Source: a virus (taxonomy: Duplodnaviria > Heunggongvirae > Uroviricota > Caudoviricetes). From it: a DNA stretch of 26,221 bases. The stretch covers positions 1 to 26,221 of the IMG/VR virus record IMGVR_UViG_2617270943_000001, one strand, 5' to 3'. The notes under the pieces are model-generated. The model saw only the letters and a list, made by a program, of their open reading frames with translations, did not search any database and was not told the origin of the DNA. The translations under genes were made by a program, and so were the position numbers. Below, in pieces: positions 6,309 to 26,221 of this stretch (its first letter is position 1; every line of letters begins with the position of its first letter).

Positions 6309-6320
6309 ATTTCCATTTCA

Positions 6321-9330: not shown

Positions 9331-9361
9331 AAATAATTTGTTTCTAAACGACTAAAATATG

Positions 9362-9584: not shown

Positions 9585-11111
9585 ATGAAAAAAGCCATAG
9601 CATATATGCGATTTTCATCACCAGGTCAGATGTCTGGCGACTCATTAAACCGACAGAGAAGACTTATTGCTGAATGGTTAAAGGTAAATAGTGATTATTA
9701 TCTTGATACCATAACATATGAAGATTTAGGATTAAGTGCATTCAAAGGAAAGCATGCACAATCAGGAGCTTTTTCGGAATTTTTAGATGCTATAGAGCAT
9801 GGTTATATATTGCCAGGAACTACATTGTTAGTTGAAAGTCTGGACAGACTTTCAAGAGAAAAAGTCGGTGAAGCGATTGAACGTCTGAAATTGATTTTGA
9901 ATCACGGTATTGATGTTATAACTCTTTGCGACAATACAGTCTATAATATTGACTCTTTGAATGAGCCATATTCATTAATAAAAGCCATACTTATAGCACA
10001 AAGGGCAAATGAAGAAAGCGAGATAAAGTCAAGTCGGGTTAAATTATCATGGAAGAAAAAACGGCAGGATGCACTGGAATCAGGTACGATTATGACGGCG
10101 TCTTGTCCGAGATGGCTCTCCTTAGATGACAAAAGAACGGCTTTTGTTCCAGACCCCGACAGGGTGAAAACTATTGAGCTAATTTTTAAACTCAGGATGG
10201 AAAGGCGCTCATTGAATGCAATAGCCAAGTATTTAAATGATCATGCTGTAAAGAATTTCTCAGGAAAAGAAAGTGCATGGGGACCTTCTGTAATTGAAAA
10301 ATTATTAGCGAATAAAGCTCTGATAGGTATATGCGTACCTTCATATCGTGCAAGAGGTAAAGGAATAAGTGAAATCGCTGGCTATTATCCCAGAGTCATA
10401 TCAGATGATTTGTTTTACGCTGTACAGGAAATTCGGTTGGCACCTTTTGGTATTAGCAATAGTAGCAAAAATCCTATGTTGATAAATCTACTTCGAACAG
10501 TTATGAAGTGCGAGGCTTGTGGTAATACCATGATTGTTCATGCGGTATCTAGAAGTTTGCATGGCTATTATGTTTGTCCGATGAGAAGACTGCATCGATG
10601 TGACAGGCCATCAATAAAGAGAGATTTGGTTGATTATAATATCATTAATGAGTTGCTTTTTAATTGTAGTAAAATCCAACCAGTTGAAAACAAGAAAGAT
10701 GCTAATGAAACTTTAGAGTTGAAAATTATTGAGCTCCAGATGAAAATTAATAATTTAATTGCTGCATTATCTGTTGCGCCTGAAGTTACCGCTATAGCAG
10801 AAAAAATCAGAGTATTAGATAAGGAATTACGAAGGGCTTCTGTATCATTAAAAACTTTGAAGAGTAAAGCGGTGAGTTCACTTGGTGATTTTCATGCTAT
10901 TGACTTAACCAGTAAAAATGGGCGAGAGCTATGTCGTACACTTGCCTATAAAACATTCGAAAAAATCATAATCAATACAGATAATAAAACCTGTGATATC
11001 TATTTTATGAATGGCATTGTTTTTAAACACTATCCTTTAATGAAAACAATATCCGCCCAGCAGGCGATAAGTACTCTCAAATATATGGTTGATGGTGAGG
11101 TTTATTTTTGA
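9585..11111 (+). CDS. ybcK: Large serine recombinase (resolvase/invertase-type N-terminal domain with recombinase and zinc-ribbon extension), 508 aa
   Basis: N-terminal AIAYMRFSSPGQ with catalytic-Ser context and LLVESLDRLSR motif; C-terminal CxxC...C cluster; AT-rich codon usage; resembles DLP12 YbcK. Confidence 0.8.
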   Translation: MKKAIAYMRFSSPGQMSGDSLNRQRRLIAEWLKVNSDYYLDTITYEDLGLSAFKGKHAQSGAFSEFLDAIEHGYILPGTTLLVESLDRLSREKVGEAIERLKLILNHGIDVITLCDNTVYNIDSLNEPYSLIKAILIAQRANEESEIKSSRVKLSWKKKRQDALESGTIMTASCPRWLSLDDKRTAFVPDPDRVKTIELIFKLRMERRSLNAIAKYLNDHAVKNFSGKESAWGPSVIEKLLANKALIGICVPSYRARGKGISEIAGYYPRVISDDLFYAVQEIRLAPFGISNSSKNPMLINLLRTVMKCEACGNTMIVHAVSRSLHGYYVCPMRRLHRCDRPSIKRDLVDYNIINELLFNCSKIQPVENKKDANETLELKIIELQMKINNLIAALSVAPEVTAIAEKIRVLDKELRRASVSLKTLKSKAVSSLGDFHAIDLTSKNGRELCRTLAYKTFEKIIINTDNKTCDIYFMNGIVFKHYPLMKTISAQQAISTLKYMVDGEVYF

Positions 11112-11255
11112 GTAATAATCACTTTTTCAACCGTGCTATAGTAAGAAAGTTAGGTAAGTACATTTAGACTGGCCCCCTGAATCTCCAGACAACCAATATC
11201 ACTTAAATAAGTGATAGTCTTAATACTAGTTTTTAGACTAGTCATTGGAGAACAG

Positions 11256-11621
11256 ATGATTGATGTCTTAGGGCCGGAGAAACGCAGACGGCGTACCACA
11301 CAGGAAAAGATCGCAATTGTTCAGCAGAGCTTTGAACCGGGGATGACGGTCTCCCTCGTTGCCCGGCAACATGGTGTAGCAGCCAGCCAGTTATTTCTCT
11401 GGCGTAAGCAATACCAGGAAGGAAGTCTTACTGCTGTCGCCGCCGGAGAACAGGTTGTTCCTGCCTCTGAACTTGCTGCCGCCATGAAGCAGATTAAAGA
11501 ACTCCAGCGCCTGCTCGGCAAGAAAACGATGGAAAATGAACTCCTCAAAGAAGCCGTTGAATATGGACGGGCAAAAAAGTGGATAGCGCACGCGCCCTTA
11601 TTGCCCGGGGATGGGGAGTAA
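11256..11621 (+). CDS. insC: IS2 transposase OrfA (InsC)
   Basis: Translation [47 protein letters not shown]... with HTH; ends just after the AAAAAAG slippery heptamer at 11573..11579. Confidence 0.9.
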
Positions 11622-12484
11622 GCTTAGTCAGCCGTTGTCTCCGGGTGTCGCGTGCGCAGTTGCACGTCATTCTCAGACGAACCGATGACTGGATGGATGG
11701 CCGCCGCAGTCGTCACACTGATGATACGGATGTGCTTCTCCGTATACACCATGTTATCGGAGAGCTGCCCACGTATGGTTATCGTCGGGTATGGGCGCTG
11801 CTTCGCAGACAGGCAGAACTTGATGGTATGCCTGCGATCAATGCCAAACGTGTTTACCGGATCATGCGCCAGAATGCGCTGTTGCTTGAGCGAAAACCTG
11901 CTGTACCGCCATCGAAACGGGCACATACAGGCAGAGTGGCCGTGAAAGAAAGCAATCAGCGATGGTGCTCTGACGGGTTCGAGTTCTGCTGTGATAACGG
12001 AGAGAGACTGCGTGTCACGTTCGCGCTGGACTGCTGTGATCGTGAGGCACTGCACTGGGCGGTCACTACCGGCGGCTTCAACAGTGAAACAGTACAGGAC
12101 GTCATGCTGGGAGCGGTGGAACGCCGCTTCGGCAACGATCTTCCGTCGTCTCCAGTGGAGTGGCTGACGGATAATGGTTCATGCTACCGGGCTAATGAAA
12201 CACGCCAGTTCGCCCGGATGTTGGGACTTGAACCGAAGAACACGGCGGTGCGGAGTCCGGAGAGTAACGGAATAGCAGAGAGCTTCGTGAAAACGATAAA
12301 GCGTGACTACATCAGTATCATGCCCAAACCAGACGGGTTAACGGCAGCAAAGAACCTTGCAGAGGCGTTCGAGCATTATAACGAATGGCATCCGCATAGT
12401 GCGCTGGGTTATCGCTCGCCACGGGAATATCTGCGGCAGCGGGCTTGTAATGGGTTAAGTGATAACAGATGTCTGGAAATATAG
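11579..12484 (+). CDS. insD: IS2 transposase OrfB (InsD; DDE catalytic domain, expressed by -1 frameshift fusion to OrfA)
   Basis: The ORF is in the -1 frame relative to insC and overlaps it by 43 nt; sequence matches IS2 InsD as recalled, with the DDE catalytic core expected for an IS3-family OrfB. Confidence 0.9.
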
Positions 12485-12558
12485 GGGCAAATCCAACATT
12501 AAAATTATCTATCCTGAACGAAGCGTCCTGAGCTATGGTTTTACTATAGAGACTGCCA

Positions 12559-12882
12559 ATGGATGCTGGCGTTCTCGTTCTAGCAGTTCAACAATACCCA
12601 ATCACAAAACAATTCACTGATAACGAACTTTGCACACTCGCCTGGTTATGGCGAGCAGGGAATGTGATGTTAATTACCTACCAGAACGTTACTCCTCTTC
12701 TTCAGGTTGCGGAGCATCGTGAAGCTGGTCGCTTCACTTCTATCGAGCAAGAATATCCCCAGATACTCAATAAGGCACAGGCAATCCTTGCCAGAGAAAC
12801 GGCACATGTAAAATTCCGGCCGTGGCAGGATGATAAGTGGAGTCGAGTTTTGCCGCATTTACGTTCGGATCGATTACAGTAG
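12559..12882 (+). CDS. Hypothetical protein, 107 aa (orphan ORF immediately right of IS2)
   Basis: ORF with ordinary codon usage; no recognisable motif; not a lambda nin-region gene. Confidence 0.4.
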   Translation: MDAGVLVLAVQQYPITKQFTDNELCTLAWLWRAGNVMLITYQNVTPLLQVAEHREAGRFTSIEQEYPQILNKAQAILARETAHVKFRPWQDDKWSRVLPHLRSDRLQ

Positions 12883-13343
12883 ATTCCAATTAACAATGAG
12901 AAACACATAGCCACCCCGTGGTATTGAAACCATATAATGTTGGATTTGAAAACAGATCTTTTTCCATGTATTAATAACTACATCCCCGCGAGTGATTCAA
13001 AAAGGAGGGCCCAATTTTGTCCGAGTTTTTGTATTCCCCCGCATGCCGCTGCGGAGCACTACATCTGAGTGTCTGACTAGGGGATAAAATTAGACTGGAT
13101 AGTGAGAAGAAAGTGGCGTGCTAGGCTGTGCCGAGTGCTACCAGTACACCCTGGGGGTGTGCAGCTTTCGCCGAGACTGTAGTGGGTATCGGTTAATGCA
13201 CGAAAAACCGAGAGGTCAGACAACCAATTTGCCGTAGGATTGTTTCCGGTGCGATACCGGTGTACTAACTGAAAGCAATGCGAAAAAGCATAAACTCGGT
13301 CCTTCAGTCGCCCTACACACTATTTACTAAGAAGGGCTAAAGC

Positions 13344-13700
13344 ATGGATACAATTATCACATGGATGGGAGATCGTCTGTTGGGGTGGATAACAAACAAA
13401 TCCGATCTGCGGCAGAGGGCAATCACTGGATTAACTCCTGCGATTTATTCAACAATTTTATATACTGAAAAATTAAAACGTGGTGAGCCTAATAACCCAA
13501 ACGAAGAAGAAAAACTTTATAGGCTTTGGTATGAAGCGTCTTCCCAAGTCGTAGACTTTGATCGAGAGCTGGCTAAAAGATGTTTAGATAAATCAGAATA
13601 TTGGCTTCATTCTGAATTATATAGCCCTGAGAAAGTTGGAGAGCTAAACATTTCTTTGGTTGGTATGAAGGCAACGCTTGAAGGAATAAAGCACAATTAA
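13344..13700 (+). CDS. Hypothetical protein, 118 aa (AT-rich orphan ORF)
   Basis: ORF with AAGGG Shine-Dalgarno-like sequence upstream, preceded by a GC-rich structured leader; low-GC codon usage suggests foreign origin. Confidence 0.45.
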   Translation: MDTIITWMGDRLLGWITNKSDLRQRAITGLTPAIYSTILYTEKLKRGEPNNPNEEEKLYRLWYEASSQVVDFDRELAKRCLDKSEYWLHSELYSPEKVGELNISLVGMKATLEGIKHN

Positions 13701-13887
13701 AACCTTTGATTTGCGATAATCAACTCGCCATAATCATGTCATCGGAGCCTGAACAACTCCGGTGACTTCTGCGCTAAACGGGGACGTTTATGCGCACACA
13801 CAATCCAAACTCTCTTCTCCCTCCAAAGATGCAGAAATGCACCTGCGATATATTGTATCCAGCGTTTGACCTCTGCGGAGGTGAAGC

Positions 13888-14343
13888 GTGAATCTCCCAC
13901 AAGATGGCATCAAATTACATCGCGGTAACTTCACCGCTATCGGTCGGCAGATCCAGCCTTATCTGGAGGAGGGCAAATGCTTTCGCATGGTGCTTAAACC
14001 GTGGCGTGAGAAACGCAGTCTTTCCCAGAATGCACTCAGCCACATGTGGTACAGCGAAATCAGTGAATACCTCATCAGCAGGGGTAAAACGTTCGCTACT
14101 CCAGCTTGGGTAAAAGATGCTCTCAAACACACATATCTCGGTTATGAAACCAAAGACCTGGTTGATGTTGTAACCGGTGATATCACCACTATCCAGTCGT
14201 TACGCCATACCTCCGATCTTGATACCGGAGAGATGTATGTCTTCCTGTGTAAGGTTGAAGCCTGGGCGGTGAATATTGGCTGCCACCTGACTATTCCGCA
14301 GAGCTGCGAGTTCCAGCTGCTCCGCGACAAGCAGGAGGCGTAA
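13888..14343 (+). CDS. ybcN: NinB-like protein (YbcN family), 151 aa
   Basis: Translation [27 protein letters not shown]...[13 protein letters not shown] matches DLP12 YbcN and the NinB family RSLxQN motif; GTG start. Confidence 0.8.
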
Positions 14344-14513
14344 TGGCTACACCGCTTATTCGTGTCATGAACGGACACATCTACAGAGTACCAGATCGTC
14401 GTAAGCGTAAACCGGAGCTGAAGCCTTCCGAAATACCAACACTGCTCGGATATACCGCCAGCCTGGTTGATAAAAAATGGTTGCGACTGGCAGCAAGGAG
14501 GAATCATGGCTGA
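14343..14513 (+). CDS. ninE: NinE-like small protein, 56 aa
   Basis: ATG overlaps the ybcN stop (TAATG); translation [56 protein letters not shown] resembles NinE. Below the 60-aa ORF-track cutoff, so found by manual translation. Confidence 0.6.
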   Translation: MATPLIRVMNGHIYRVPDRRKRKPELKPSEIPTLLGYTASLVDKKWLRLAARRNHG

Positions 14514-14796
14514 TTTGAGAAAAGCAGCGCGTAGTCGGGAATGCCAGGTAAGAATCCCTGGCGTATGTAATGGCAACCCTGAAACGTCTGTACTGGCACA
14601 TATCCGGCTGACTGGATTGTGCGGCACCGGTACCAAACCGCCAGACCTGATTGCCACCATTGCATGTTCTGCCTGCCACGACGAAATCGACCGCCGCACA
14701 CATTTTGTCGATGCTGCATATGCAAAAGAATGCGCGCTGGAAGGTATGGCGAGAACACAGGTTATCTGGCTGAAAGAGGGGGTTATTAAGGCGTGA
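14506..14796 (+). CDS. ybcO: YbcO-like nin-region protein (Cys-rich, putative nuclease), 96 aa
   Basis: Translation [64 protein letters not shown] matches DLP12 YbcO; overlaps the ninE stop. Confidence 0.75.
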
Positions 14797-15155
14797 ATAC
14801 CTACAGCATCACATTACCCTGGCCTCCGAGCAATAATCGCTATTACCGCCATAATCGCGGGCGCACGCACGTCAGCGCAGAGGGGCAGGCATACCGCGAT
14901 AACGTCGCCCGAATCATTAAAAACGCAATGCTGGATATCGGCCTGGCTATGCCTGTGAAAATCCGCATTGAGTGCCACATGCCGGATCGCCGTCGCCGTG
15001 ACCTGGATAATCTGCAAAAAGCCGCTTTTGACGCACTCACTAAAGCAGGTTTCTGGCTGGATGATGCTCAGGTCGTTGATTACCGCGTTGTGAAGATGCC
15101 TGTTACCAAAGGTGGGAGGCTGGAACTGACCATCACCGAAATGGGGAATGAATGA
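14793..15155 (+). CDS. rusA: Holliday junction resolvase RusA, 120 aa
   Basis: Translation [41 protein letters not shown]... matches RusA; GTG start overlapping the ybcO stop. Confidence 0.9.
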
Positions 15156-15292
15156 TGTTTGAGTTTTATATGGCAGAACGTCTTCGCCACCGCTGGGGGC
15201 GTCTGCGCTTATATCGTTTCCCCGGTTCTGTTTTGACCGATTACCGAATACTGAAGAATTACGCCAAAACCCTGACAGGAGCAGGAGTATGA
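15152..15292 (+). CDS. ylcG: Small protein, 46 aa (YlcG-like)
   Basis: ATGA overlap with the rusA stop; manual translation [46 protein letters not shown]. Position between rusA and Q is as in DLP12. Confidence 0.4.
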
Positions 15293-15377
15293 AGTCAGAG
15301 ATAACAATCAACTAATACTGTTTCGTTGATTTTTGCTTGTAATTGGCGTTCTGGTCTGATTTTTGTGGAGTAAGTTG

Positions 15378-15761
15378 ATGCGTGATATTCAGATGGTTCT
15401 TGAGCGTTGGGGAGCGTGGGCGGCTAATAATCATGAAGATGTGACCTGGTCGTCCATTGCCGCCGGTTTTAAGGGATTAATTACTTCAAAAGTAAAATCT
15501 CGCCCGCAATGTTGTGACGATGACGCGATGATCATTTGCGGGTGCATGGCCCGTCTGAAAAAGAACAACAGCGATTTGCACGATTTATTAGTAGATTATT
15601 ATGTAGTCGGTATGACATTCATGTCACTGGCAGGTAAGCATTGCTGCTCTGATGGTTATATCGGGAAAAGGTTACAGAAGGCTGAGGGCATAATTGAAGG
15701 GATGTTAATGGCATTAGATATCCGGTTAGAGATGGATATCGTTGTTAATAACTCTAATTAA
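15378..15761 (+). CDS. quuD: Late-gene antiterminator Q (phage 82/DLP12 QuuD type), 127 aa
   Basis: Translation [24 protein letters not shown]... with Cys-rich zinc-binding region ([16 protein letters not shown]); positioned after rusA and before the lysis genes. Confidence 0.8.
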
Positions 15762-15785
15762 TACGCCAATTATTTACTAAAAGTT

Positions 15786-15813
15786 ATTAAAAATGGGGCG
15801 TTGAAACGCCCCC
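15786..15813 (-). terminator. Rho-independent terminator (minus strand) downstream of the porin gene
   Basis: GGGGCG-TTGAAA-CGCCCC hairpin followed on the minus strand by a U-run (plus-strand AAAAA at 15789..15793). Confidence 0.55.
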
Positions 15814-15965
15814 AAAAATAAAGGGTAATATATAACAGAAGGTTTGTATAGTTAGAAGCAAGGTTGTGCTTCTAAAGGAAGTGGCTTGAGGGAGCCACTT
15901 ATATGTTGGGGAGGCAAAGCCTCCCACAACATATCTTTTAGTAATCAAATTAGAACTGGTAAACC
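15814..15965 (-). ncRNA. Candidate small RNA between the porin 3' end and the minus-strand terminator (IpeX-like position)
   Basis: Three perfect 8-bp hairpins (15853..15874, 15879..15900, 15901..15934) plus the terminator hairpin in under 180 nt, co-directional with the porin gene. The DLP12 sRNA IpeX is reported at the nmpC 3' end; sequence identity not verified. Confidence 0.25.
15901..15940 (+). terminator. Rho-independent terminator on plus strand (candidate tR' of the late operon)
   Basis: Extended hairpin ATATGTTG-GGGAGGC-AAA-GCCTCCC-ACAACATAT followed by CTTTT, about 140 nt downstream of Q. Confidence 0.5.
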
Positions 15966-17032
15966 ATACCTACAGCAACGATATCATCGGTAGCAACGCC
16001 AGATGCTTTCGTGAAATCGCTCTTATCAATCAGGTTGATTTTGTAGTCAACAAAAGTGGACATATTTTTGTTGAAGTAATAGGTTGCACCTACATCAACA
16101 TATTCAACCAGGTCCTGATCACCCCAAACACCCAAGTCTTTTCCTTTAGAATGCAGGTAAGCAACGGATGGACGCAGGCCGAAGTCGAACTGATATTGTG
16201 CAACAGCTTCGAAGTTTTGTGCTTTGTTGGCAATATGGTTATTACCAAAAACAGTCATGTTCTGGGTTTCAGAATAGGTGGTGGCCAGATAGATGTTGTT
16301 CGCATCATATTTCAGACCAGCTGCCCATACTTCAGCATTTTGACCAGAAGCATTCAGACCGTTGTTACCGTAGATAACCTGATTATTAGTGCGATCAGAT
16401 TTAGCATAGGTTGCACCCACGCCGAATCCTTCATACTCATAAGTAGTTGAGAAACCGAAACCATCGCCATTAGCTTCAGTTACTTCATTTCGGTCATTTT
16501 TGCCCTGATACTGAGCTGCAAAGTTCAGGCCATCAACCAGACCAAAGAAGTCGTTGTTACGATAAGTTGCAACACCTGTGGTGCGACCAGTCATGAATAC
16601 ATCTGTTTGGGTCCAGGTATCGCCACCGAATTCTGGCAGAACGTCAGTCCACGCACCGATGTCGTATGCTACACCGTAGTTACGGCCGTAATCGATTGAG
16701 CCGTAGTCACCGAATTTCAGGCCTGCAAATGCAAGACGGGTTTTGTCTTTGGAGGAACCTTGAGATTCAGCGCGGTTGCCTTTGAATTCATATTCCCACT
16801 GACCGAAACCAGTCAGTTGATCGTTGATTTGGGTTTCACCTTTGAAGCCAAGACGGGCATAAGTAGTATCACCATCATCTGCATCATTAGAGGAGAAGTA
16901 GTGCTTAGCATTAACTTTCCCGTACAGATCCAGCTTGTTACTGTCTTTATTATAAATTTCAGCTGCCTGAGCAGACATCGCCATCAGTACTGATGCAGCT
17001 ACAGCAGAAATTGCCACTGTTAATTTTTTCAT
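15950..17032 (-). CDS. nmpC: General porin of the OmpC/OmpF/PhoE family (NmpC/Lc-type phage-encoded porin), 360 aa
   Basis: Signal peptide [29 protein letters not shown], porin motifs and C-terminal VGMVYQF. Encoded antisense to the late operon between Q and the lysis genes, as in DLP12 and PA-2. Confidence 0.9.
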
Positions 17033-17620
17033 CGTGAGCCCTTTTTTTTGAACTATTATTAAAAAATGATGTCACTGCGCGATAAATATTCATCTAATCA
17101 ATGTGATTATTTCAAGATGTAAGTTTTAGTTTCTCATTTAATTTGTGAAGTAGATCTCTATTTTTATCTGAACTTTTTCTATCGAAACCTATTTATGGCT
17201 CTTATTTGAACAAAAATAAACCTATTAGCTAATTTATATTAATGGCTGTTATTTATGGGGGTTCTATAATTCGGCAGTTTAATTTAAATCAACTAAAAAT
17301 AACGTCTGAAATTATTTATTGGTTATTTGTTGAGGTTTTCTTATGTATTTGTGGTGGAGTTTTGAACACTCGGTAGCATTCTCATAAATATCATTCAGCG
17401 GTTTACGTACGTAAAAAATTGGTTATGCTGTTAAGAGTGGTTACTTCGTCACACAGCTTAAACCCGCCGTCGAGCTGGTTTTTCCATTTTTTGAGTCTCG
17501 ATATTAGCTGATAACTCAATACCTGAGTTATTCACTGACTCCGAGTCTGTTACGTTTCTGCTTTTTTGCGATACGTTGTATTCCCTCAATTTACACCCGC
17601 TTTGTCTGCGAGGTGGGGTT

Positions 17621-17836
17621 ATGAAATCCATGGATAAGTTAACAACGGGTGTCGCCTATGGCACCTCAGCAGGTAGTGCCGGTTACTGGTTTTTACAGCT
17701 GCTCGATAAAGTCACGCCCTCACAGTGGGCAGCAATAGGTGTGCTGGGTAGCCTGGTATTTGGCCTGCTGACGTACCTGACAAACCTTTATTTCAAGATT
17801 AAAGAAGATAAGCGCAAGGCTGCGAGAGGTGAATAA
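17621..17836 (+). CDS. essD: Class II holin (phage 21 S-type pinholin) with dual-start motif MKSM, 71 aa
   Basis: Translation [71 protein letters not shown] matches S21; two TM segments; Met1/Met4 dual start. Confidence 0.85.
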
Positions 17837-18333
17837 TGCCTCCATCATTACGAAAAGCCGTTGCTGCTGCTATTGGTGGCGGAGCAATTGCTATAGCATC
17901 AGTGTTAATCACTGGCCCAAGTGGTAACGATGGTCTGGAAGGTGTCAGCTACATACCATACAAAGATATTGTTGGTGTATGGACTGTATGTCACGGGCAT
18001 ACAGGAAAAGACATCATGCTCGGTAAAACGTATACCAAAGCAGAATGCAAAGCCCTCCTGAATAAAGACCTTGCCACGGTCGCCAGACAAATTAACCCGT
18101 ACATAAAAGTTGATATACCGGAAACAACGCGCGGCGCTCTTTACTTGTTCGTTTACAACGTGGGCGCTGGCAATTTCAGAACATCGACGCTTCTTCGCAA
18201 AATAAACCAGGGCGATATCAAAGGCGCATGTGATCAGCTACGTCGCTGGACATATGCTGGCGGTAAGCAATGGAAAGGTCTCATGACTCGTCGTGAGATT
18301 GAGCGTGAAATCTGTTTGTGGGGTCAGCAATGA
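17836..18333 (+). CDS. rrrD: SAR (signal-anchor-release) endolysin, lysozyme family, 165 aa
   Basis: Gly/Ala-rich N-terminal SAR segment ([20 protein letters not shown]) followed by a lysozyme domain; TAATG overlap with the holin stop. Confidence 0.85.
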
Positions 18334-18797
18334 ACAGAGTAACCGCGATTATCTCCGCTCTGGTTATCTGCATCATCGTCTGCCTGTCATGGGCTGTTAA
18401 TCATTACCGTGATAATGCAATCGCCTACAAAGAACAGCGCGATAACAAGGCCAGTGAACTGGAGAAGGCGAACGCCACCATTACTGACATGCAGCAGCGC
18501 CAGCGTGATGCTGATGCACTCGATGATAAATACACGAAGGAGTTAGCTGATGCGAAAGCTGAAAATGATGCTCTTCGGCGCAAGCTTGATAATGGTGGTC
18601 GGGTGCTCGTCAAAGGAAAATGCCCTGTGCCATCCTCAGCCGAAACCTCCAGCGCCTCCGGCATGGGCAATGATGCCACCGTCGAACTCTCTCCAGTTGC
18701 TGGACGAAACGTTCTCGGTATCCGGGACGGAATTATCCGCGACCAAACAGCACTGAGAACGCTTCAGGAATACATCAGGACGCAATGCCTTCGATGA
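18330..18797 (+). CDS. rzpD: Spanin inner-membrane subunit Rz, 155 aa
   Basis: N-terminal TM segment followed by a coiled-coil-rich periplasmic domain; ATGA overlap with the endolysin stop; Rz1 embedded in the +1 frame. Confidence 0.8.
18550..18756 (+). CDS. rzoD: Spanin outer-membrane lipoprotein subunit Rz1 (embedded within Rz)
   Basis: Lipoprotein signal with VVGC lipobox, then Pro-rich [16 protein letters not shown], entirely inside Rz in a different frame. Confidence 0.7.
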
Positions 18798-18970
18798 TAG
18801 CGATAATTTTACTCATCATCCTTCACATCTGGCTCTGTAGACAGGGTGGTGCTCACTTCTGGAGTGAATCCAGATTAAACATCTCATTGCTGATGCTTGA
18901 TATTGAGCATTTTGCGCGCGGTAAGGGGCTGCGTTGAGATAAGAGCCAGTCATTACAAATACCAGGATTT

Positions 18971-18996
18971 AGCCTCGCATTCGCGGGGCTTTTTAT
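18971..18996 (+). terminator. Rho-independent terminator after the lysis cassette
   Basis: AGCCTCGC-ATTC-GCGGGGCT hairpin (one G-U pair) followed by TTTTTATT. Confidence 0.5.
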
Positions 18997-19288
18997 TGCC
19001 ATTACAAAAGCCACTTCCTACAGAGTGGCTTTGATAATGGCTTATACCCTACACGGGATAACTTAACTGATATCCCTTTTAAAGGATAAAGGTATTCAAG
19101 CCTGACACATCATGCGCTGTATCGTCGCCGTATTCCCGTATTAACAGAGACCGTAGCCCGACGGGGAACTCCTTCTGCGCGAGTGTGTGGGAATAATCAA
19201 AAACGATGCACACCGGGGTTACCGGGTACACATATTTCATCATGCCAGCGAGTCCGGTTCTGGCACGGAAGAAACCGGACGTTATGAT

Positions 19289-19699
19289 TTAGTGCGGAAA
19301 TATTTGTGTAGTGTTCTGAATGTTCTCAGTAAAGAGTAATGAATTATCAAAGGTATAGTAATACCTTTTGTTTTCGTGGATATTTGTAATCCATCTGAAA
19401 ACCCCTGCTGTAGCAAGATTTTTCCTGTATTCGTAAAATGATAACTCTCCTGATTTGAATCCTTTTAAGGTGGCTTCTATAAGGCATTTATTTTTTGAAA
19501 ATCTTACATTTACAACCTTACCCTGTCCTTTTATTAAAACCGTATTATCGTTTTCAAGAACAAGATGAATATTCTCTGTGGCTAAATAGTAAATGTAATG
19601 TGAGACATTGTGACGTTTTAGTTCAGAATAAAACCAGTGATAGTTTAAATTATTTCGCACTTTATCGAATATTTGTTTAAAAATGGCAACCTGAGCCAT
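19289..19699 (-). CDS. ybcV: YbcV-like protein, 136 aa from ATG at 19699
   Basis: Translation [18 protein letters not shown]...[24 protein letters not shown] resembles DLP12 YbcV; GGAAGG Shine-Dalgarno 7 nt upstream; AT-rich; opposite strand to late genes, in the position occupied by bor in lambda. Confidence 0.7.
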
Positions 19700-19755
19700 T
19701 GTAGTACCTTCCATGTGATATGAGGGGTGTAGTCTGCACGATTATCTAAATTGCT

Positions 19756-19989
19756 TCAATCTGGTCTGATCTGTTTTCTGAGCAATTCAGTAATGTCACT
19801 CTTTTCTTTGTTTGCTTCAGGAGAAACTCTTTTTTCTGAGCACAGTCTCCGGCGGCAGGCTTCAATGACCCAGGCTGAGAAATTCCCGGACCCTTTTTGA
19901 TCAAGAGCGATGTTAATTTGTTCAATCATTTGGTTAGGAAAGCGGATGTTGCGGGTTGTTGTTCTGCGGGTTCTGTTCTTCGTTGACAT
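19756..19989 (-). CDS. Small putative ribbon-helix-helix (Arc/CopG-like) DNA-binding protein, 77 aa
   Basis: Basic N-terminus RRTTTRNIRFPNQMIEQINIALD suggests an RHH fold; co-oriented with the ybcV-like gene. Confidence 0.45.
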   Translation of the reverse strand: MSTKNRTRRTTTRNIRFPNQMIEQINIALDQKGSGNFSAWVIEACRRRLCSEKRVSPEANKEKSDITELLRKQIRPD

Positions 19990-20139
19990 GAGGTTGTCCC
20001 GTATTCAGTGTCGCTGATTTGTATTGTCTGAAGTTGTTTTTACGTTAAGTTGATGCAGATCAATTAATACGATACCTGCGTCATAATTGATTATTTGACG
20101 TGGTTTGATGGCGTAGATGCACGTTGTGACATGCAGATG

Positions 20140-20360
20140 ATAATTATTATCATTTTGCGGGTCCTTTCCGGCGATCCGACAGGTTACGGGGCGGCGACCT
20201 CGCGGGTTTTCGCTATTTATGAAAATTTTCCGGTTTAAGGTGTTTCCGTTCTTCTTCGTCGTAACTTAATGTTTTTATTTAAAATACCCCCTGAAAAGAA
20301 AGGAAACGACAGGTGCTGAAAGCGAGCTTTTTGGCCTCTGTCGTTTCCTTTCTCTGTTTT
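20140..20360 (+). other. cos: Lambda-type cos site (cosQ-cosN-cosB); cosN 12-nt cohesive end GGGCGGCGACCT at 20189..20200
   Basis: The sequence ...GATCCGACAGGTTACGGGGCGGCGACCTCGCGGGTTTTCGCTATTTATGAAAATTTTCCGGTTTAAGG... is near-identical to the lambda cos junction with a few substitutions and a 1-bp indel, immediately upstream of nu1. Confidence 0.85.
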
Positions 20361-20377
20361 TGTCCGTGGAATGAACA

Positions 20378-20923
20378 ATGGAAGTCAACAAAAAGCAGCT
20401 GGCTGACATTTTCGGTGCGAGTATCCGTACCATTCAGAACTGGCAGGAACAGGGAATGCCCGTTCTGCGAGGCGGTGGCAAGGGTAATGAGGTGCTTTAT
20501 GACTCTGCCGCCGTCATAAAATGGTATGCCAAAAGGGATGCTGAAATTGAGAACGAAAAGCTGCGCCGGGAGGTTGAAGAACTGCGGCAGGCCAGCGAGG
20601 CAGATCTCCAGCCAGGGACTATTGAGTACGAACGCCATCGACTTACGCGTGCGCAGGCCGACGCACAGGAACTGAAGAATGCCAGAGACTCCGCTGAAGT
20701 GGTGGAAACCGCATTCTGTACTTTCGTGCTGTCGCGGATCGCAGGTGAAATTGCCAGTATTCTCGACGGGATCCCCCTGTCGGTGCAGCGGCGTTTTCCG
20801 GAACTGGAAAACCGACATGTTGATTTCCTGAAACGGGATATCATCAAAGCCATGAACAAAGCAGCCGCGCTGGATGAACTGATACCGGGGTTGCTGAGTG
20901 AATATATCGAACAGTCAGGTTAA
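20378..20923 (+). CDS. nu1: Terminase small subunit Nu1, 181 aa
   Basis: Translation MEVNKKQLADIFGASIRTIQNWQEQGMPVLRGGGKGNEVLYDSAAVIKWYA... is near-identical to lambda Nu1 (NohD-type). Confidence 0.95.
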   Translation: MEVNKKQLADIFGASIRTIQNWQEQGMPVLRGGGKGNEVLYDSAAVIKWYAKRDAEIENEKLRREVEELRQASEADLQPGTIEYERHRLTRAQADAQELKNARDSAEVVETAFCTFVLSRIAGEIASILDGIPLSVQRRFPELENRHVDFLKRDIIKAMNKAAALDELIPGLLSEYIEQSG

Positions 20924-22199
20924 CAGGCTGCGGCATTTTGTCCGCGCCGGGCTTCGCTCACTGTTCAGGCCGGAGCCACAGACCGCCGTTGAATGGGCGG
21001 ATGCTAATTACTATCTCCCGAAAGAATCCGCATACCAGGAAGGGCGCTGGGAAACACTGCCCTTTCAGCGGGCCATCATGAATGCGATGGGCAGCGACTA
21101 CATCCGTGAGGTGAATGTGGTGAAGTCTGCCCGTGTCGGTTATCTGGATTTTTTCAAAGGCGAGATAGGGAAAACCCATCTGGCTCAGGAGCTGTGGACG
21201 CAGATTGATAACGGTCAGCTTGCGCCTGACCTGACTGAAATCAGGACGTCCATAACGGATGTCAGCAATGAAATAACGCAGACCGTCAATAAGAAACTGG
21301 AAGACCAGAGTGCAGCGATCCAGCAGATACAGAAGGTTCAGGTTGATACAAATAATAACCTGAACAGCATGTGGGCAGTGAAGCTGCAGCAGATGCAGGA
21401 CGGACGCCTTTATATTGCGGGTATCGGTGCCGGTATTGAGAACACCCCTGACGGCATGCAGAGTCAGGTGCTGCTGGCAGCAGACAGGATTGCGATGATT
21501 AATCCTGCGAATGGCAACACAAAGCCGATGTTTGTTGGTCAGGGCGATCAGATATTCATGAATGAAGTGTTCCTGAAACGCCTGACGGCCCCCACCATTA
21601 CCAGCGGCGGTAATCCTCCGGCATTTTCCCTGACATCAGACGGGAGACTGACGGCGAAAAATGCGGATATCAGTGGCAGTGTGAATGCGAACTCAGGAAC
21701 GCTCAACAATGTCACGATTAACCAGAACTGTACGATTAAGGGCATGCTGGAGGCGACCCAGGTCAGAGGAGATTTCGTTAAAGCTGTATCAAAAGCCTTC
21801 CCGAAAAAAGTCGGTACATGGGGTAACACGGAAACACCAAACGGTACGGTTACAGTCACCATCAGCGATGATCATAACTTTGACCGCCAGATTATTATTC
21901 CGCCCATTATTTTTAACGGTATAGCGTATGACGATCCGGGGAGCGGAAATAACCCAGGAGGCACGCGATACACGGGTTATGGTTTTGAAGTTCGCAAAAA
22001 CGGCGTATTAATCGCATCCAGAGAAACTAAAGGGGCCATTCCCGGTAGTTACAGTGCAGTTATTGATATGCCCAGTGGCAGGGGAAGCGTCACTCTGGAG
22101 TTTAAGATTTTCCAGAAAGGCAATCAGGGGGCAGGCAATATCACCGACTGTACGGTGATTGTGACCAAAAAAGCCGCTTCCGGCATCAGTATTCGTTGA
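20898..22199 (+). pseudogene. Chimeric in-frame ORF: terminase large subunit A N-terminus (about 82 aa) fused to the C-terminal about 350 aa of tail-tip host-specificity protein J
   Basis: Residues 1-82 (MNISNSQVNRLRHFVRAGLRSLFRPEPQTAVEWADANYYLPKESAYQEGRWETLPFQRAIMNAMGSDYIREVNVVKSARVGY) match lambda A; the remainder (...WAVKLQQMQDGRLYIAGIGAGIENT...SGGNPPAFSLT...VNANSGTLNNVTI...) matches the lambda J C-terminal region; junction near 21144. Start overlaps nu1 by 26 nt as in lambda. Confidence 0.75.
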
Positions 22200-22269: not shown

Positions 22270-22869
22270 ATGCGTAAAGTTTGTGCAGCAATTTTGTCCG
22301 CAGCCATTTGTCTGGCCGTATCCGGTGCGCCTGCATGGGCGTCTGAACATCAGTCCACGCTGAGCGCGGGGTATCTTCATGCCTCGACGAACGTCCCCGG
22401 CAGCGATGATCTGAACGGGATTAACGTGAAATACCGTTATGAGTTTACGGACACACTGGGGCTGGTGACGTCATTCAGCTATGCAGGAGACAAGAATCGC
22501 CAGCTGACCCGTTACAGCGATACCCGCTGGCATGAAGATTCCGTTCGTAACCGCTGGTTCAGCGTAATGGCGGGGCCGTCTGTGCGCGTGAATGAATGGT
22601 TCAGCGCGTATGCGATGGCGGGTGTAGCTTACAGCCGTGTGTCGACTTTCTCCGGGGATTATCTTCGCGTAACTGACAACAAGGGGAAAAAGCACGATGT
22701 GCTGACCGGAAGTGATGACGGTCGCCACAGCAACACGTCTCTGGCGTGGGGGGCTGGCGTGCAGTTTAACCCGACCGAATCCGTGGCCATTGATATTGCT
22801 TATGAAGGCTCCGGCAGTGGTGACTGGCGCACTGACGGTTTCATCGTGGGTGTCGGTTATAAATTCTGA
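22270..22869 (+). CDS. lom: Lom outer-membrane beta-barrel protein (Ail/Lom family), 199 aa
   Basis: Signal peptide and Ail/Lom-type beta-barrel ending in VGVGYKF; gene order J-lom-stf as in lambda. Confidence 0.9.
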   Translation: MRKVCAAILSAAICLAVSGAPAWASEHQSTLSAGYLHASTNVPGSDDLNGINVKYRYEFTDTLGLVTSFSYAGDKNRQLTRYSDTRWHEDSVRNRWFSVMAGPSVRVNEWFSAYAMAGVAYSRVSTFSGDYLRVTDNKGKKHDVLTGSDDGRHSNTSLAWGAGVQFNPTESVAIDIAYEGSGSGDWRTDGFIVGVGYKF

Positions 22870-22923: not shown

Positions 22924-22933
22924 TGGGGTGAAT

Positions 22934-25900
22934 ATGGCAGTAAAGATTTCAGGTGTACTGAAAGACGGCACAGGAAAACCGGTACAGAACTGCACAATCC
23001 AGCTGAAAGCAAAACGTAACAGCACCACGGTGGTGGTGAACACGCTGGCCTCAGAAAATCCGGATGAAGCCGGGCGTTACAGCATGGACGTTGAGTACGG
23101 GCAGTACAGCGTTATTCTGTTGGTGGAGGGATTCCCGCCGTCACATGCCGGGACCATCACCGTGTATGAAGATTCCCGACCCGGTACGCTGAATGATTTT
23201 CTCGGTGCCATGACGGAGGATGATGCCCGTCCTGAGGCACTGCGCCGTTTTGAACTGATGGTGGAAGAGGTGGCGCGTAACGCGTCCGCGGTGGCACAGA
23301 ACACGGCAGCCGCGAAGAAGTCAGCCAGCGATGCCGGCACATCAGCCCGTGAGGCGGCAACCCATGCGACTGATGCTGCAGGCTCAGCACGCGCAGCCAG
23401 CACGTCAGCCGGACAGGCCGCTTCGTCGGCTCAGTCAGCGTCTTCCAGCGCAGGAACGGCATCAACAAAGGCCACTGAAGCGGAAAAAAGTGCTGCCGCT
23501 GCAGAGTCCTCAAAAAGCGCGGCGGTCACCAGTGCCGCTGCGGCGAAAACGTCAGAAACGAATGCGGCAGCGTCACAACAATCAGCAGCCACTTCTGCAT
23601 CCGCCGCGACCACGAAGGCGTCAGAAGCAGCCACCTCAGCCCGGGATGCGGCGGCCTCAAAAGAGGCAGCGAAATCATCAGAAACGAACGCATCATCAAG
23701 CGCCAGTAGTGCCGCTTCCTCGGCAACGGCGGCAGGCAATTCCGCGAAGGCGGCAAAGACGTCTGAGACAAACGCCAGGTCTTCTGAAACGGCAGCGGGA
23801 CAGAGCGCCTCGGCTGCGGCAGGCTCAAAAACAGCGGCTGCGTCGTCTGCCAGTGCCGCGTCAACAAGTGCCGGGCAGGCCTCAGCCAGTGCCACCGCCG
23901 CCGGAAAATCGGCAGAAAGCGCCGCATCGTCTGCTTCAACAGCCACAACGAAGGCTGGCGAAGCCACTGAACAGGCCAGCGCAGCAGCAAGGTCTGCTTC
24001 CGCAGCGAAGACATCCGAGACGAACGCGAAAGCGTCGGAAACCAGCGCAGAATCCTCAAAAACGGCTGCCGCATCGTCCGCCAGTTCGGCGGCGTCATCG
24101 GCATCATCGGCGTCTGCTTCAAAAGATGAGGCGACCAGACAAGCGTCCGCAGCGAAGGGCAGCGCCACGACGGCATCCACGAAGGCGACAGAGGCAGCTG
24201 GCAGTGCGACGGCGGCAGCACAGAGCAAAAGTACGGCGGAATCCGCGGCAACGCGCGCCGAGACAGCGGCAAAACGGGCAGAGGATATTGCATCCGCCGT
24301 GGCGCTTGAGGATGCAAGTACGACGAAAAAGGGGATAGTACAGCTCAGCAGTGCGACCAACAGTACGTCTGAAACGCTGGCGGCAACGCCAAAGGCAGTA
24401 AAATCAGCCTATGACAATGCAGAGAAACGTCTGCAGAAAGACCAGAACGGCGCTGATATACCCGATAAGGGACGCTTCCTGAACAACATTAACGCGGTCA
24501 GTAAAACAGACTTTGCTGATAAGCGTGGTATGCGTTATGTGCGGGTTAACGCTCCTGCAGGTGCAACATCTGGAAAATATTACCCTGTTGTTGTTATGCG
24601 TTCTGCTGGCTCAGTAAGCGAACTGGCATCAAGGGTCATTATCACCACGGCAACGCGAACCGCAGGCGATCCGATGAATAACTGCGAGTTTAACGGATTT
24701 GTTATGCCTGGTGGCTGGACTGACAGGGGGCGTTATGCTTATGGAATGTTCTGGCAATATCAAAACAATGAACGAGCCATCCACTCAATAATGATGAGTA
24801 ATAAGGGCGATGATTTGCGCTCTGTGTTCTATGTTGATGGCGCTGCTTTCCCTGTTTTTGCGTTTATCGAAGATGGCCTGTCAATATCCGCACCTGGTGC
24901 TGATCTCGTTGTTAATGATACGACCTATAAGTTTGGGGCAACAAATCCGGCGACTGAATGTATCGCGGCGGACGTTATCCTTGATTTTAAGAGTGGGCGT
25001 GGTTTTTATGAGTCTCATTCGTTAATCGTTAACGATAACTTGTCGTGCAAAAAACTTTTTGCCACAGACGAAATTGTAGCGCGTGGTGGTAATCAGATTC
25101 GAATGATAGGTGGGGAGTATGGGGCATTATGGCGTAATGATGGCGCTAAAACTTACCTGCTGCTTACCAATCAAGGTGATGTTTATGGTGGCTGGAATAC
25201 ATTAAGACCGTTTGCTATTGATAACGCAACCGGCGAACTGGTTATTGGAACCAAACTGTCCGCAAGTCTGAACGGTAATGCATTAACAGCAACAAAGCTG
25301 CAAACGCCAAGACGGGTTTCTGGTGTTGAGTTTGATGGTTCCAAAGATATTACTTTAACCGCCGCGCATGTGGCTGCTTTTGCCAGAAGGGCAACGGATA
25401 CATATGCCGATGCGGATGGTGGCGTTCCCTGGAATGCCGAATCAGGCGCTTATAATGTCACCCGCTCTGGCGACAGCTATATTCTGGTTAACTTCTATAC
25501 CGGAGTCGGAAGTTGCCGGACCTTGCAGATGAAGGCGCATTACAGAAATGGTGGTCTGTTCTACCGTTCTTCAAGAGACGGTTATGGTTTTGAGGAAGAC
25601 TGGGCAGAAGTTTATACCTCGAAAAATCTTCCACCAGAAAGCTACCCAGTCGGCGCACCAATCCCGTGGCCATCAGATACCGTTCCGTCTGGTTATGCCC
25701 TGATGCAGGGGCAGACTTTTGACAAATCTGCTTACCCGAAACTTGCAGCCGCTTATCCGTCAGGCGTGATCCCTGATATGCGTGGCTGGACGATTAAGGG
25801 CAAACCTGCCAGTGGTCGGGCCGTATTGTCTCAGGAACAGGACGGCATTAAATCGCATACCCACAGCGCCAGCGCATCCAGTACAGATTTGGGGACGAAA

Positions 25901-26221
25901 ACCACATCGTCGTTTGATTACGGCACTAAATCCACGAATAACACTGGTGCGCATACCCATAGTTTAAGTGGCAGCACGAATGCAGCTGGTAATCACAGCC
26001 ATAGAGATGGCCGTCGATTTAACCCCAGTGTTTTTAAAGATACTTATCAATATGGTTATACAAGCTCAGGTCAAAATACCTGGGGTGTACAAGGCTCAGT
26101 AGGTATGTCTACGGGGTGGTTAGCTAATACCAGTACAGATGGTAATCATAGCCACTCACTGTCCGGCACAGCAGCATCTGCAGGTGCACACGCGCATACT
26201 GTCGGTATTGGTGCTCATACG
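22934..26221 (+). CDS. stf: Side tail fibre protein (Stf-like), 3'-partial; at least 1096 codons open to the window end
   Basis: Manual translation from ATG 22934 ([30 protein letters not shown]...) stays open to 26221; long Ala/Ser/Thr-rich repetitive region; C-terminal HxH motifs ([26 protein letters not shown]) typical of phage long tail fibres. Absent from the ORF track because no stop codon lies within the window. Confidence 0.8.

Follow-up and report, generated by a model that had tools for sequence, protein, structure and literature searches.

Gene content of the window

The window (the whole stretch of DNA that was analysed, 26,221 nt) begins at the stop codon of int; attL lies just to its left, and an adjoining argU would likewise fall outside it. 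The window ends where the contig ends, and the right arm and attR lie beyond. On a sister contig (L009), tfa and pin come after stf. The features identified are collected in Table 1. The gene order found was that of the DLP12 family (emrE-ybcK ... ybcN-ninE-ybcO-rusA-ylcG-quuD-nmpC-ess-rrr-rzp ... nohD).

Table 1. Coordinates of features in the window, with strand and basis of assignment.
Feature	Position (nt)	Strand	Basis or comparison
Integrase, IntD type, 387 aa, argU/DLP12 attachment-site family	1-1164	-	99.7% protein identity to PhiR34_1 integrase
Excisionase ORF, 123 aa, HTH_17, overlaps 5' end of int	1020-1391	-	PHROG match
Red module (exo, bet, gam)	2641-4405	-	full length, 97-99.6% to PhiR34_1
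Immunity region	5284-6917	cI minus; cro, cII-like plus	full length compared with PhiR34_1
cI	5284-6039	-	100% to PhiR34_1
cro	6078-6308	+	98.7% to PhiR34_1
cII-like	6378-6917	+	98.9% to PhiR34_1; PHROG 163 CII-like
Replication genes O and P	O 6914-7933; P 7930-8631	+	full length compared with PhiR34_1
Origin inside O: five 19-23-nt iterons, then A/T-rich stretch	iterons 7350-7467		sequence repeats
IS2-like insertion sequence (IS3 family)	11165-12495 (ends approximate)	+	transposase ORFs, inverted repeats
Late antiterminator Q (QuuD type)	15378-15761	+	100% to PhiR34_1 Q
Lysis cassette: holin S, endolysin R, spanin Rz	17621-18797	+	S 100%, R 98.8% to PhiR34_1
cosQ, GGGTCCT, packaging-termination signal	20159-20165	+	identical to lambda 48473-48479
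cosN	20187-20202	+	identical to lambda
Cohesive end, 12 nt, GGGCGGCGACCT	20189-20200	+	identical to lambda
cosB (R3, I1 region, R2, R1)	20238-20353	+	lambda arrangement
R3; R2 (inverted); R1	20238-20253; 20297-20312; 20338-20353	+	read from sequence
nu1 (small terminase subunit, NohD homologue), 181 aa	20378-20923	+	179/181 identical to lambda Nu1
Chimeric A-J ORF, 433 codons (in-frame fusion: A codons 1-82, then last ~351 codons of J)	20898-22199	+	translation
Deletion junction, 7-nt microhomology CGGTTAT	21137-21143	+	present in A and parental J allele
lom (Ail/Lom outer-membrane protein)	22270-22869	+	100% to PhiR34_1 Lom
Side tail fibre stf	22928-26221, runs off window	+	99.5% to PhiR34_1 Stf residues 1-1098

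Integration and excision genes: The int region (window 1-1259) is 99.8% identical in DNA sequence to K-12 intD, and the identical integrase protein adjoins fimZ and fimbrial genes in six of the six places listed, as in K-12. The excisionase family PHROG 2907 matched the window at 1044-1265 on the minus strand (E=8.5e-23), and the equivalent 123-aa gene is annotated as PF12728 on related contigs.

Replication, immunity and lysis genes: A first-pass annotation of this DNA had taken replication, immunity, int/xis and lysis to be intact, and comparison with the viable DLP12-like phage PhiR34_1 (PV340559.1) bears this out at the level of gene length. No stop codon interrupts int, exo, bet, gam, cI, cro, cII, O, P, ren, Q, S or R, each of which has the full length of its PhiR34_1 counterpart and 95-100% identity to it. 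Rz, likewise uninterrupted and of full length, is a different allele (62% identity, three gaps). By the same comparison the excisionase, too, is full length. The Red region is 96.8% identical in DNA sequence to lambda 30418-33193.

Mosaic segments: Every ORF outside two mosaic segments has a counterpart in PhiR34_1. The unmatched segments contain the insertion sequence, an ORF resembling the C terminus of Ant, members of PHROG families of unknown function, DUF1398 and DUF3950; the insertion sequence and these ORFs also occur in ordinary prophages. The insertion sequence, which is absent from PhiR34_1, lies between ybcK and nin-like genes, upstream of Q, and encodes HTH_Tnp_1 (11211-11621) and rve (11579-12484) domains between terminal inverted repeats of 33 nt (11174-11206 and 12455-12487). 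From the ORF sizes and the end sequence we take it to be IS2.

The cos site and Nu1

The window was aligned with both ends of the lambda genome: lambda 1-956 corresponds to window 20189-21143 (99.3% identity; six mismatches, one gap) and lambda 48141-48502 to window 19827-20188 (95.0%). Subsites of cos were assigned by the definitions given in PMC9026076. What had been described as a near-lambda cosN with its flanks proved to be a complete lambda-type cos (cosQ, cosN and R3-I1-R2-R1; window 20159-20353). R2 and R1 match lambda exactly, and R3 differs from lambda at bp 53 only, outside the stretch contacted by TerS (R3 bp 55-63), which is unchanged; the spacer from cosN to R3 is also that of lambda. 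In total, cosB departs from lambda at bp 53 (C>T), bp 73 (A>G) and bp 102 (T>C) and by a 1-nt deletion between R2 and R1, and all four differences also occur in viable phages. Each base change in cosB and in the segment from cosQ to cosN recurs in one or more of the isolated viable phages PhiR29_1, 2H10 and Turner. The one exception in the cos region, a single base 53 nt upstream of the nick, falls in none of the defined subsites.

The full-length Nu1 proposed in the first pass is likewise present (Table 1). Residues E24 and K35 are retained; the change E52K is private, being found in none of the nine homologues compared.

Deletion of the morphogenesis block

The large terminase, capsid and tail genes had been reported as missing. 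The head-tail block is indeed gone, but A codons 1-82, the last ~351 codons of J, lom and stf remain. The J part of the chimeric ORF comprises the tail tip and the receptor-binding domains, and a Pfam search of the ORF returned a GpA_ATPase fragment, Phage_Tail_Tip and Ig_GpJ_C. PhiR34_1 (44,626 bp) is colinear over window 1-11120, 13705-18574 and 19827-21143, whereupon the alignment jumps to PhiR34_1 37105-42188; ~17.0 kb is absent relative to that phage. The alignments with lambda and PhiR34_1 stop at 21143 and start again at 21138, within the microhomology listed in Table 1.

This arrangement would be produced by a single illegitimate, microhomology-mediated deletion of ~17.0 kb, extending from A codon 83 to about J codon 815. 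The integrity of cos and nu1 is then explained by the position of the left end, which fell 220 nt downstream of nu1. We are confident that the element is best read as a lambdoid prophage of the DLP12 family that has recently lost its head and tail genes and is defective, not adapted. Simple decay, which the first-pass annotation had offered as its fallback, is favoured; the event was a plain microhomology deletion that left fragments of A and J behind.

Rarity of the junction

An exact search for the junction returned none of the 5,426 complete E. coli genomes and none of the GTDB representative genomes. The exact fusion protein was found on three contigs of a very large gene index (JNPK01000008.1 of GCA_000703725.1, which is the window's own, and one Logan run). 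From this rarity and the absence of other damage, the deletion looks recent. Among the 5,426 complete genomes the only near match is NZ_CM151356.1, in which a prophage at the thrW site has the same endpoint in A and retains 122 nt more of J. The junction of the window could be derived from the NZ_CM151356.1 type by a slip between GGTTA repeats, but the left arms of the two differ at 19 of 1,066 positions.

A recurrent breakpoint in gene A

At least five further deletions, all different and found in other genomes, share with the window the exact nucleotide of their left breakpoint in A. A left breakpoint shared in this way implies that the position of the deletion is not random. At all junctions for which the parent sequence could be read, a short microhomology ending in TAT was present, a sign more of a mechanistic hot spot than of selection. 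The left arms of the remnants with the recurrent breakpoint, compared for a shared origin, showed no common haplotype. No significant DNA hairpin was detected at the breakpoint (z = -1.5). The breakpoint carries what we take to be a half-site resemblance to the Hin/Gin/Pin site (TTAT[T]CCAAAA); a pseudo-site for such an invertase was rejected, as the junction coincides with its outer edge and not with the crossover dinucleotide.

A recurrent breakpoint might also reflect selection of the remnant itself, with cos, nu1 and the 82-aa segment A' kept, and produced repeatedly, for the benefit of the host or of the element; the remnant might serve as a decoy cos, as the source of a Nu1/A' complex that poisons an incoming lambda-type terminase, or as a landing pad for recombination. 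Each of the deletions at the same A nucleotide that was checked keeps an exact cosN and a 181-codon nu1, and the retained A' segment includes the N terminus of gpA, which is the part that binds Nu1. Recombination with infecting phages is, moreover, stimulated beside the cos of DLP12 (PMC3945230). Other remnants, however, have their breaks elsewhere: within nu1, 62 nt deeper into A, or well downstream in A. The fusion is in frame in some cases only, and the genes concerned, being part of the late operon, would not be expressed in a lysogen. We regard selection for this architecture as quite unlikely. That head-tail loss should be a recurrent, site-directed event joining one A nucleotide to at least six tail-gene partners, with the remnant kept as a decoy or poison or as a helper-mobilisable or recombination-ready module, strikes us as improbable in the same way.

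Unit length and prospects of packaging

The unit length was estimated at 17 + 26,221 + 2,438 = ~28,676 bp (~28.7 kb), on the assumption of a right arm like that of PhiR34_1; this corresponds to 0.59 (59%) of lambda for a monomer and 1.18 (118%) for a dimer. Lambda heads reportedly accept about 75-78% to 105% of the lambda length. The size check against these limits that was recommended in the first pass therefore speaks against packaging: monomer and dimer both lie outside the accepted range, so that packaging of the whole element should be inefficient. A right arm longer by at least 9 kb would bring the element into the packageable range.

On SOS induction the element, a defective prophage by the reading preferred here, would be expected to be derepressed, excised and replicated and to lyse the cell, without particles being formed. 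The terminase of any phage of lambda-type Nu1/A specificity, whether co-resident or infecting, is predicted to cleave the element's cos. With such phages, homologous recombination or marker rescue in the neighbourhood of cos would be the likelier interaction. The nu1, R and Rz genes of K-12 DLP12 function once they have been recombined into lambda, and the recombination is concentrated beside cos (PMC3945230); the defective O157 prophage Sp4 is packaged by the terminase of Sp14 through an identical cos (PMC2669165). By analogy with these defective lambdoid prophages, a co-resident lambda-type phage could occasionally package the element or rescue its markers (PMC2669165, PMC3945230).

A stronger form of the same idea is that the element, though not an evolved satellite, is transferred at a measurable frequency when its cell also supports the growth of a heteroimmune lambda-type phage: once induced, it would be excised, replicated from its own origin and, aided by Gam, form concatemers, which the terminase, heads and tails of the helper would package from the element's cos. 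In specificity class the cos and Nu1 agree with those of viable phages, and the replication, Red/Gam and int/xis modules appear intact. Potential helpers are common, as 80% or more of a 2.5-kb cos-nu1-A segment is present at high identity in 3,264 of the 5,426 complete E. coli genomes, and packaging in trans has been documented for defective lambdoid prophages (PMC2669165) and for passive prophages between two cos sites (PMC4669245). Against this, no multimer falls inside the accepted head capacity, and no gene for remodelling of capsid size is present. The element's CI would repress a homoimmune helper, late transcription may be lowered by the IS2 upstream of Q, and Nu1 carries the private E52K. 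On balance, measurable transfer by this route is doubtful, with perhaps a small chance of being correct.

The first-pass annotation had suggested possible satellite-like packaging, which the present results do not support. An evolved cos-type satellite, for which the loss of morphogenesis genes would be adaptive and which would exploit a helper in the manner of P4, the cos-SaPIs and the E. coli PICIs, has only a general resemblance to the element, namely an integrase and replication genes of its own, a retained cos and the absence of the capsid and tail block. The fragments of A and J, lom and stf are typical of a deletion derivative; the junction is unique and arose by a plain microhomology event, and the genomes searched gave no conserved lineage. 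The ORFs of the window include no recognisable packaging redirector of the Rpp, Sid or Ccm type, no Rpp- or Ppi-type binder of TerS, and no helper-sensing regulator such as an AlpA-type activator or a master repressor lifted by a helper protein; the regulators are the ordinary set of CI, Cro and CII. In PICIs cosB is replaced and TerS is redirected by Rpp (PMC9026076), whereas cosB in the window is of the normal phage type and not private. The size, finally, is about twice that of known PICIs and is incompatible with lambda heads. We consider an evolved satellite extremely unlikely, and this reading is already close to refutation. Insertion of a satellite into gene A, as in HE-PICI, was also rejected: the only A site reported belongs to another terminase family and lies at another position (PMC10111431), and no foreign integrase is present.

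Significance

In itself the finding adds little, as the element appears to be an early-stage form of the decay that lies behind K-12 DLP12, with replication, immunity and lysis genes still intact as judged from their sequences. It offers a convenient natural example of how a cryptic prophage originates. Being predicted to lyse the cell without making particles, it is a potentially lethal prophage for its host. Its cos and nu1 are a predicted usable substrate for many lambda-type terminases of E. coli, so that gene exchange with the prophages that encode them would be possible; cos-proximal recombination is already known for DLP12. The more interesting by-product is that deletions of the morphogenesis block repeatedly begin at the same few nucleotides of A. 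If confirmed, such a hot spot would account for the retention of cos-nohD in so many E. coli remnants.

Comparison with known systems

K-12 DLP12: The cryptic prophage DLP12 of K-12 (intD ... essD-rrrD-rzpD-borD-ybcV-ylcI-cos-nohD-aaaD'-tfaD) shares with the window its gene order, a lambda-type cos and a Nu1 homologue; across cos-nohD-A' the two are 98.4% identical in DNA sequence. It is likewise without head and tail genes, and its A is truncated near the 5' end. Unlike the window, in which all these modules are retained, DLP12 no longer has cI, cro, O, P or most of Red, and it carries IS3 and IS5. A common deletion event was considered and rejected: the K-12 breakpoint lies 62 nt further into A and is joined to tfaD, and from this difference we conclude that the two deletions were independent.

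Viable DLP12-like phages: The colinearity of PhiR34_1 and PhiR68_2 with the window runs from int as far as A codon 82 and resumes at J codon ~815 as far as stf, the individual genes being 96-100% identical. Phages of this type have the full A-W-B-C-D-E-FI-FII-Z-U-V-G-T-H-M-L-K-I-J block (17.0 kb), which is absent in the window; ybcL-ybcM takes the place of IS2 and two small ORFs, and bor sits where the window has the DUF1398 gene.

Defective prophages of O157: Sp4 of O157 Sakai, which is of roughly full phage length, keeps most of its morphogenesis genes, whereas the element in the window is ~28.7 kb long without the block for heads and tails. Sp4 is similarly defective, its cos is nearly identical to that of a co-resident phage, and the same principle of complementation between prophages applies (PMC2669165).

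Phage-inducible chromosomal islands: The element carries a phage cosB of its own, a genuine Nu1 gene beside it and CI/Cro regulation, and is ~28.7 kb in length. PICIs measure ~10-15 kb and are induced by helper functions. They have no phage cosB; Rpp, encoded beside cos, binds and retargets the TerS of the helper, and helper packaging is blocked. Gram-negative cos-type PICIs such as EcCICFT073 are nevertheless integrated, without capsid genes and equipped with a lambda-like cosQ and cosN (PMC9026076), as is the element in the window.

Passive prophages and cosmids: In the constructs of the Feiss laboratory, partial lambda prophages with cos were packaged by a helper matched in cosB when two cos sites were suitably spaced (PMC4669245). 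Those constructs were engineered to a phage-length distance from cos to cos, whereas the corresponding distance in the natural element is not of phage length.

The deletion junction

Similarity to gene A of lambda and of the viable DLP12-like phage PhiR34_1 ends at position 21143 of the window, and similarity to the 3′ part of J begins at 21138. The two genes meet at the heptamer CGGTTAT (21137–21143). A carries it in the context …GTGTCGGTTAT|TCCAAA…, and J carries it, in the parental allele, in the context …GCATCCGGTTAT|CTGGAT… (seen in E. coli strain 90-1). A 433-codon in-frame ORF (20898–22199) comprises A codons 1–82 and the J tail-tip and receptor-binding domains; the N-terminal end of gpA is the Nu1-binding part. 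The fusion ORF is followed by lom and then stf, and on the sister contig L009 by tfa and a Pin-type invertase gene after stf. Relative to PhiR34_1, ∼17.0 kb was lost: what followed codon 82 of A, every head gene, and the tail genes up to and including most of J. The large terminase, capsid and tail genes had been described as missing; this holds for most of them, with the 5′ part of A, the 3′ part of J, lom and stf still in place. Such a pattern marks one illegitimate deletion mediated by microhomology.

Among related fusions, an A′::stf fusion in E. coli WWCOL-315 (L017, 6760–7806) is in frame and annotated as an intact "phage tail protein", and the aaaD/tfaD fusion of K-12 is in frame as judged by coordinates; two other junctions are out of frame, so no clear reading-frame bias is apparent.

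A query placed across the junction found this A–J join in none of the 5,426 complete E. coli genomes, the single near match (NZ_CM151356.1) having 122 extra bases of J. Exact matching against a set with a single genome for each species likewise gave no hit, and in a search of a very large gene index just three contigs carried the exact fusion protein, namely the source, one identical to it and a Logan assembly.

Prophage identity and gene content

The window is the terminal 26,221 bases of the 242,660-base draft contig JNPK01000008.1 (GCA_000703725.1). Its left edge is the stop codon of a 387-aa integrase gene with 99.8% DNA identity to intD of DLP12, a cryptic prophage of K-12; at all locations consulted, the identical integrase protein is encoded next to fimZ and the sfm fimbrial genes, at the argU locus, the window's own attL lying outside the stretch. 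K-12 DLP12 is colinear with the window gene by gene, and colinearity is closer still with DLP12-like temperate phages that have been isolated and are viable, among them PhiR34_1 (PV340559.1, 44,626 bp). Replication (O, P, ori), immunity, int/xis and lysis had been considered intact in the first-pass annotation, and the gene content agrees: int, exo/bet/gam, cro, cII, O, P, ren, R, Rz and a 123-aa excisionase gene (HTH_17) are uninterrupted, cI, Q and S are uninterrupted and 100% identical to those of PhiR34_1, and five iterons followed by an A/T-rich stretch lie inside O. The 179-aa ORF at 6378–6917, named cII in PhiR34_1, is matched along its length by PHROG 163 ("CII-like activator"); its residues 67–154 also match Pfam YdaT_toxin (E=1.7e-28).

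Three cargo genes are whole (Table), including a porin gene that is broken by IS5 in K-12; ybcL and ybcM, present in PhiR34_1 and K-12, are missing. Two segments, 11121–13704 and 18575–19826, are unlike PhiR34_1 and contain the insertion element, a small Ant-C-terminal-like ORF, PHROG families of unknown function, DUF1398 and DUF3950, the last three of which are also present in another ordinary prophage remnant. The insertion element is the only other visible damage; it sits within the rightward early operon, with ybcK on one side and the nin-like genes on the other, upstream of Q, and might already impair late expression. The modules on either side of the deletion barely differ from their counterparts in viable phages.

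The rarity of the junction and the near-intactness of the element argue that the event was recent and confined to one lineage, and against a design that is being maintained. Simple decay, the alternative that the first-pass annotation had set beside a satellite-like role, is favoured, and a recently decayed prophage rather than an adapted satellite is very probably what the window represents.

Table. Coordinates of features in the window and of the main breakpoint in A in other sequences
Feature	Position	Remarks
emrE	8998–9327	SMR efflux; intact cargo gene
ybcK	9585–11111	508-aa serine recombinase; intact cargo gene
IS2-like element	∼11165–12495	presumably IS2; terminal inverted repeats 11174–11206 and 12455–12487
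nmpC/ompD-type porin gene	15950–17032	360 aa; uninterrupted cargo gene
cosQ	20159–20165	GGGTCCT, identical to lambda; coordinates as we take them
cosN, cohesive end	20189–20200	identical to lambda
R3	20238–20253	sole difference from lambda at lambda bp 53
R2	20297–20312	identical to lambda
R1	20338–20353	identical to lambda
Main breakpoint, L001 (thrW-site prophage)	∼20243	
Main breakpoint, L017 (E. coli WWCOL-315)	∼7005	
Main breakpoint, L019 (remnant-bearing sequence)	∼2370	minus strand
Main breakpoint, L021 (remnant-bearing sequence)	∼14500	
Main breakpoint, L022 (remnant-bearing sequence)	∼8047	

A recurrent breakpoint in gene A

The A nucleotides …GTGTCGGTTA(T)| (codon 82, window 21137–21143) are where at least six different deletions have their left breakpoint; J and stf are each joined at two sites, and L and K also serve as partners. 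In a thrW-site prophage the partner is again J, entered 122 nt further upstream. A remnant at the DLP12 site, present in 25 complete genomes and one IMG/VR contig, has the C-terminal part of stf at this place, and a metagenome contig has stf from a more distal point. In IMG/VR contigs the partner is either the 5′ end of L or gene K. The thrW-site prophage (L001, NZ_CM151356.1 3688093–3728815) is CPS-53/KplE1-like and has cos-nu1-A′ joined to J′-lom-stf, so the late-region remnant is combined with different integrases and different early regions. All main-site remnants checked have kept the exact cosN and a 181-codon nu1. Their 1,066-nt left arms differ mutually at 11–19 positions and resemble one another no more than they resemble intact phages, so a single origin is not evident.

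Two partners each were found for the K-12 aaaD site (…CACCCTTAT|) and for a third site in A (…CCCGGATAT|), both of which end in TAT, and a microhomology of 3–7 nt ending in TAT was present at every junction with readable parent sequence. No junction turned up when five control positions in A were scanned in the same way, in an uneven comparison, the main site having been searched in more collections; at least 120 IMG/VR contigs run uninterrupted through the main site. The simplest reading would be a mechanistic hot spot for illegitimate recombination in A which, if true, helps to explain the commonness of cos-nohD remnants (nohD being the nu1 homologue of K-12 DLP12) without selection for packaging.

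A DNA hairpin was looked for at the breakpoint and none was found; a serine-invertase crossover did not fit, and reported late-gene-integrating satellites showed no link to it.

cos site and Nu1

Window 20189–21143 matches lambda 1–956 at 99.3%, and 19827–20188 matches the lambda right end at 95.0%. The near-identity to lambda first reported for cosN, its cosQ/cosB flanks and a full-length Nu1 was borne out. The spacer between cosN and cosB shows no difference, and cosB differs by bp 53 C>T, bp 73 A>G, bp 102 T>C and a 1-nt deletion between R2 and R1. The change at bp 53 falls outside bp 55–63, which TerS contacts in R3 (Murialdo and Feiss, PMC9026076). Each of these differences, and likewise each base change between cosQ and cosN, is common to at least one of the viable phages PhiR29_1, 2H10 and Turner; one base 53 nt upstream of the nick, outside the defined subsites, recurs only in another prophage remnant.

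Nu1 (181 aa) is identical to lambda Nu1 at 179/181 residues and retains the DNA-contact residues E24 and K35. Its charge-reversing substitution E52K (codon 52, window 20531) is private, being absent from nine homologues (lambda, four viable phages and four other remnants). The residues adjoining position 52 have been placed in the dimer interface of the TerS DNA-binding domain (PMC9026076), and E52K could be neutral or a first disabling mutation.

Packaging length

The length tested was the cos-to-cos distance in the replicating element, that is, its full unit length. With a PhiR34_1-like right arm assumed beyond the contig end, the unit is estimated at 17 + 26,221 + 2,438 = ∼28,676 bp, or 0.59 lambda (dimer, 1.18 lambda); L009 agrees with such an arm as far as it extends. 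The right end of the window (26221) is the source contig end, inside stf, with attR and the rest of the right arm lying beyond; the assembly probably broke off here because the tail-fibre gene is repeated. Work by Feiss et al. in 1977 and by Feiss and Siegele in 1979 reportedly found stable cos-terminated lambda particles only at ∼75–78% to ∼105% of wild-type length. Short cos replicons enter the head as multimers falling inside the accepted length range. With these limits, neither the 28.7 kb monomer nor any multimer of it fits the lambda head, and no capsid-size-redirecting gene was found in the window. The size check proposed at first pass came out against packaging; the mismatch would fail only with an unseen right arm at least 9 kb longer.

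Helper packaging and comparison with known systems

K-12 DLP12 likewise retains cos-nohD and a 5′ stub of A (aaaD). De Paepe et al. found DLP12 nu1, R and Rz to be functional once recombined into lambda, with about half of the sequenced recombination junctions on that side of the marker directly beside cos, and suggested that cutting of both partners by terminase promotes the exchange (PMC3945230). The defective O157 prophage Sp4, without a working terminase, was still packaged (Asadulghani et al.), and the terminase responsible is most likely that of Sp14, a prophage with an identical cos (PMC2669165); passive prophages between two cos sites were routinely packaged in the helper-packaging assays of Feiss (PMC4669245). 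By these precedents, the service of a defective cos+ lambdoid prophage by a neighbour is established as a general idea, and potential lambda-type helpers are common in E. coli genomes; a cos-nu1-A probe matched in 4,607 of 5,426 complete genomes, over at least 80% of its 2.5 kb in 3,264. Measurable opportunistic transfer of this element is nevertheless unlikely, given a unit length of ∼28.7 kb outside the lambda-head range and an E52K substitution and IS2 that could impair function.

Upon SOS induction the element would be expected to excise, replicate and lyse the cell without producing particles, a selective burden that may drive further decay towards the state of K-12 DLP12. A lambda-type terminase supplied in trans would probably cut its cos; packaging of the whole element would be inefficient owing to its length, and what could realistically be expected is recombination with the helper close to cos, or else rare aberrant products.

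The satellite-like, helper-dependent design suggested by the first-pass annotation is not supported for this particular element. It has no capsid genes and its own int and replication genes; satellite-defining features beyond these were tested for in the window and not found, its regulators are the ordinary CI/Cro/CII set, and the rare junction and the wrong size also make an evolved satellite extremely improbable. In Gram-negative cos-type PICIs the phage cosB is replaced, and Rpp, encoded beside cos, binds the helper TerS and retargets the terminase (PMC9026076), whereas the window, with no Rpp-type gene at that place, has kept an ordinary phage cosB and a genuine Nu1 gene beside cos.
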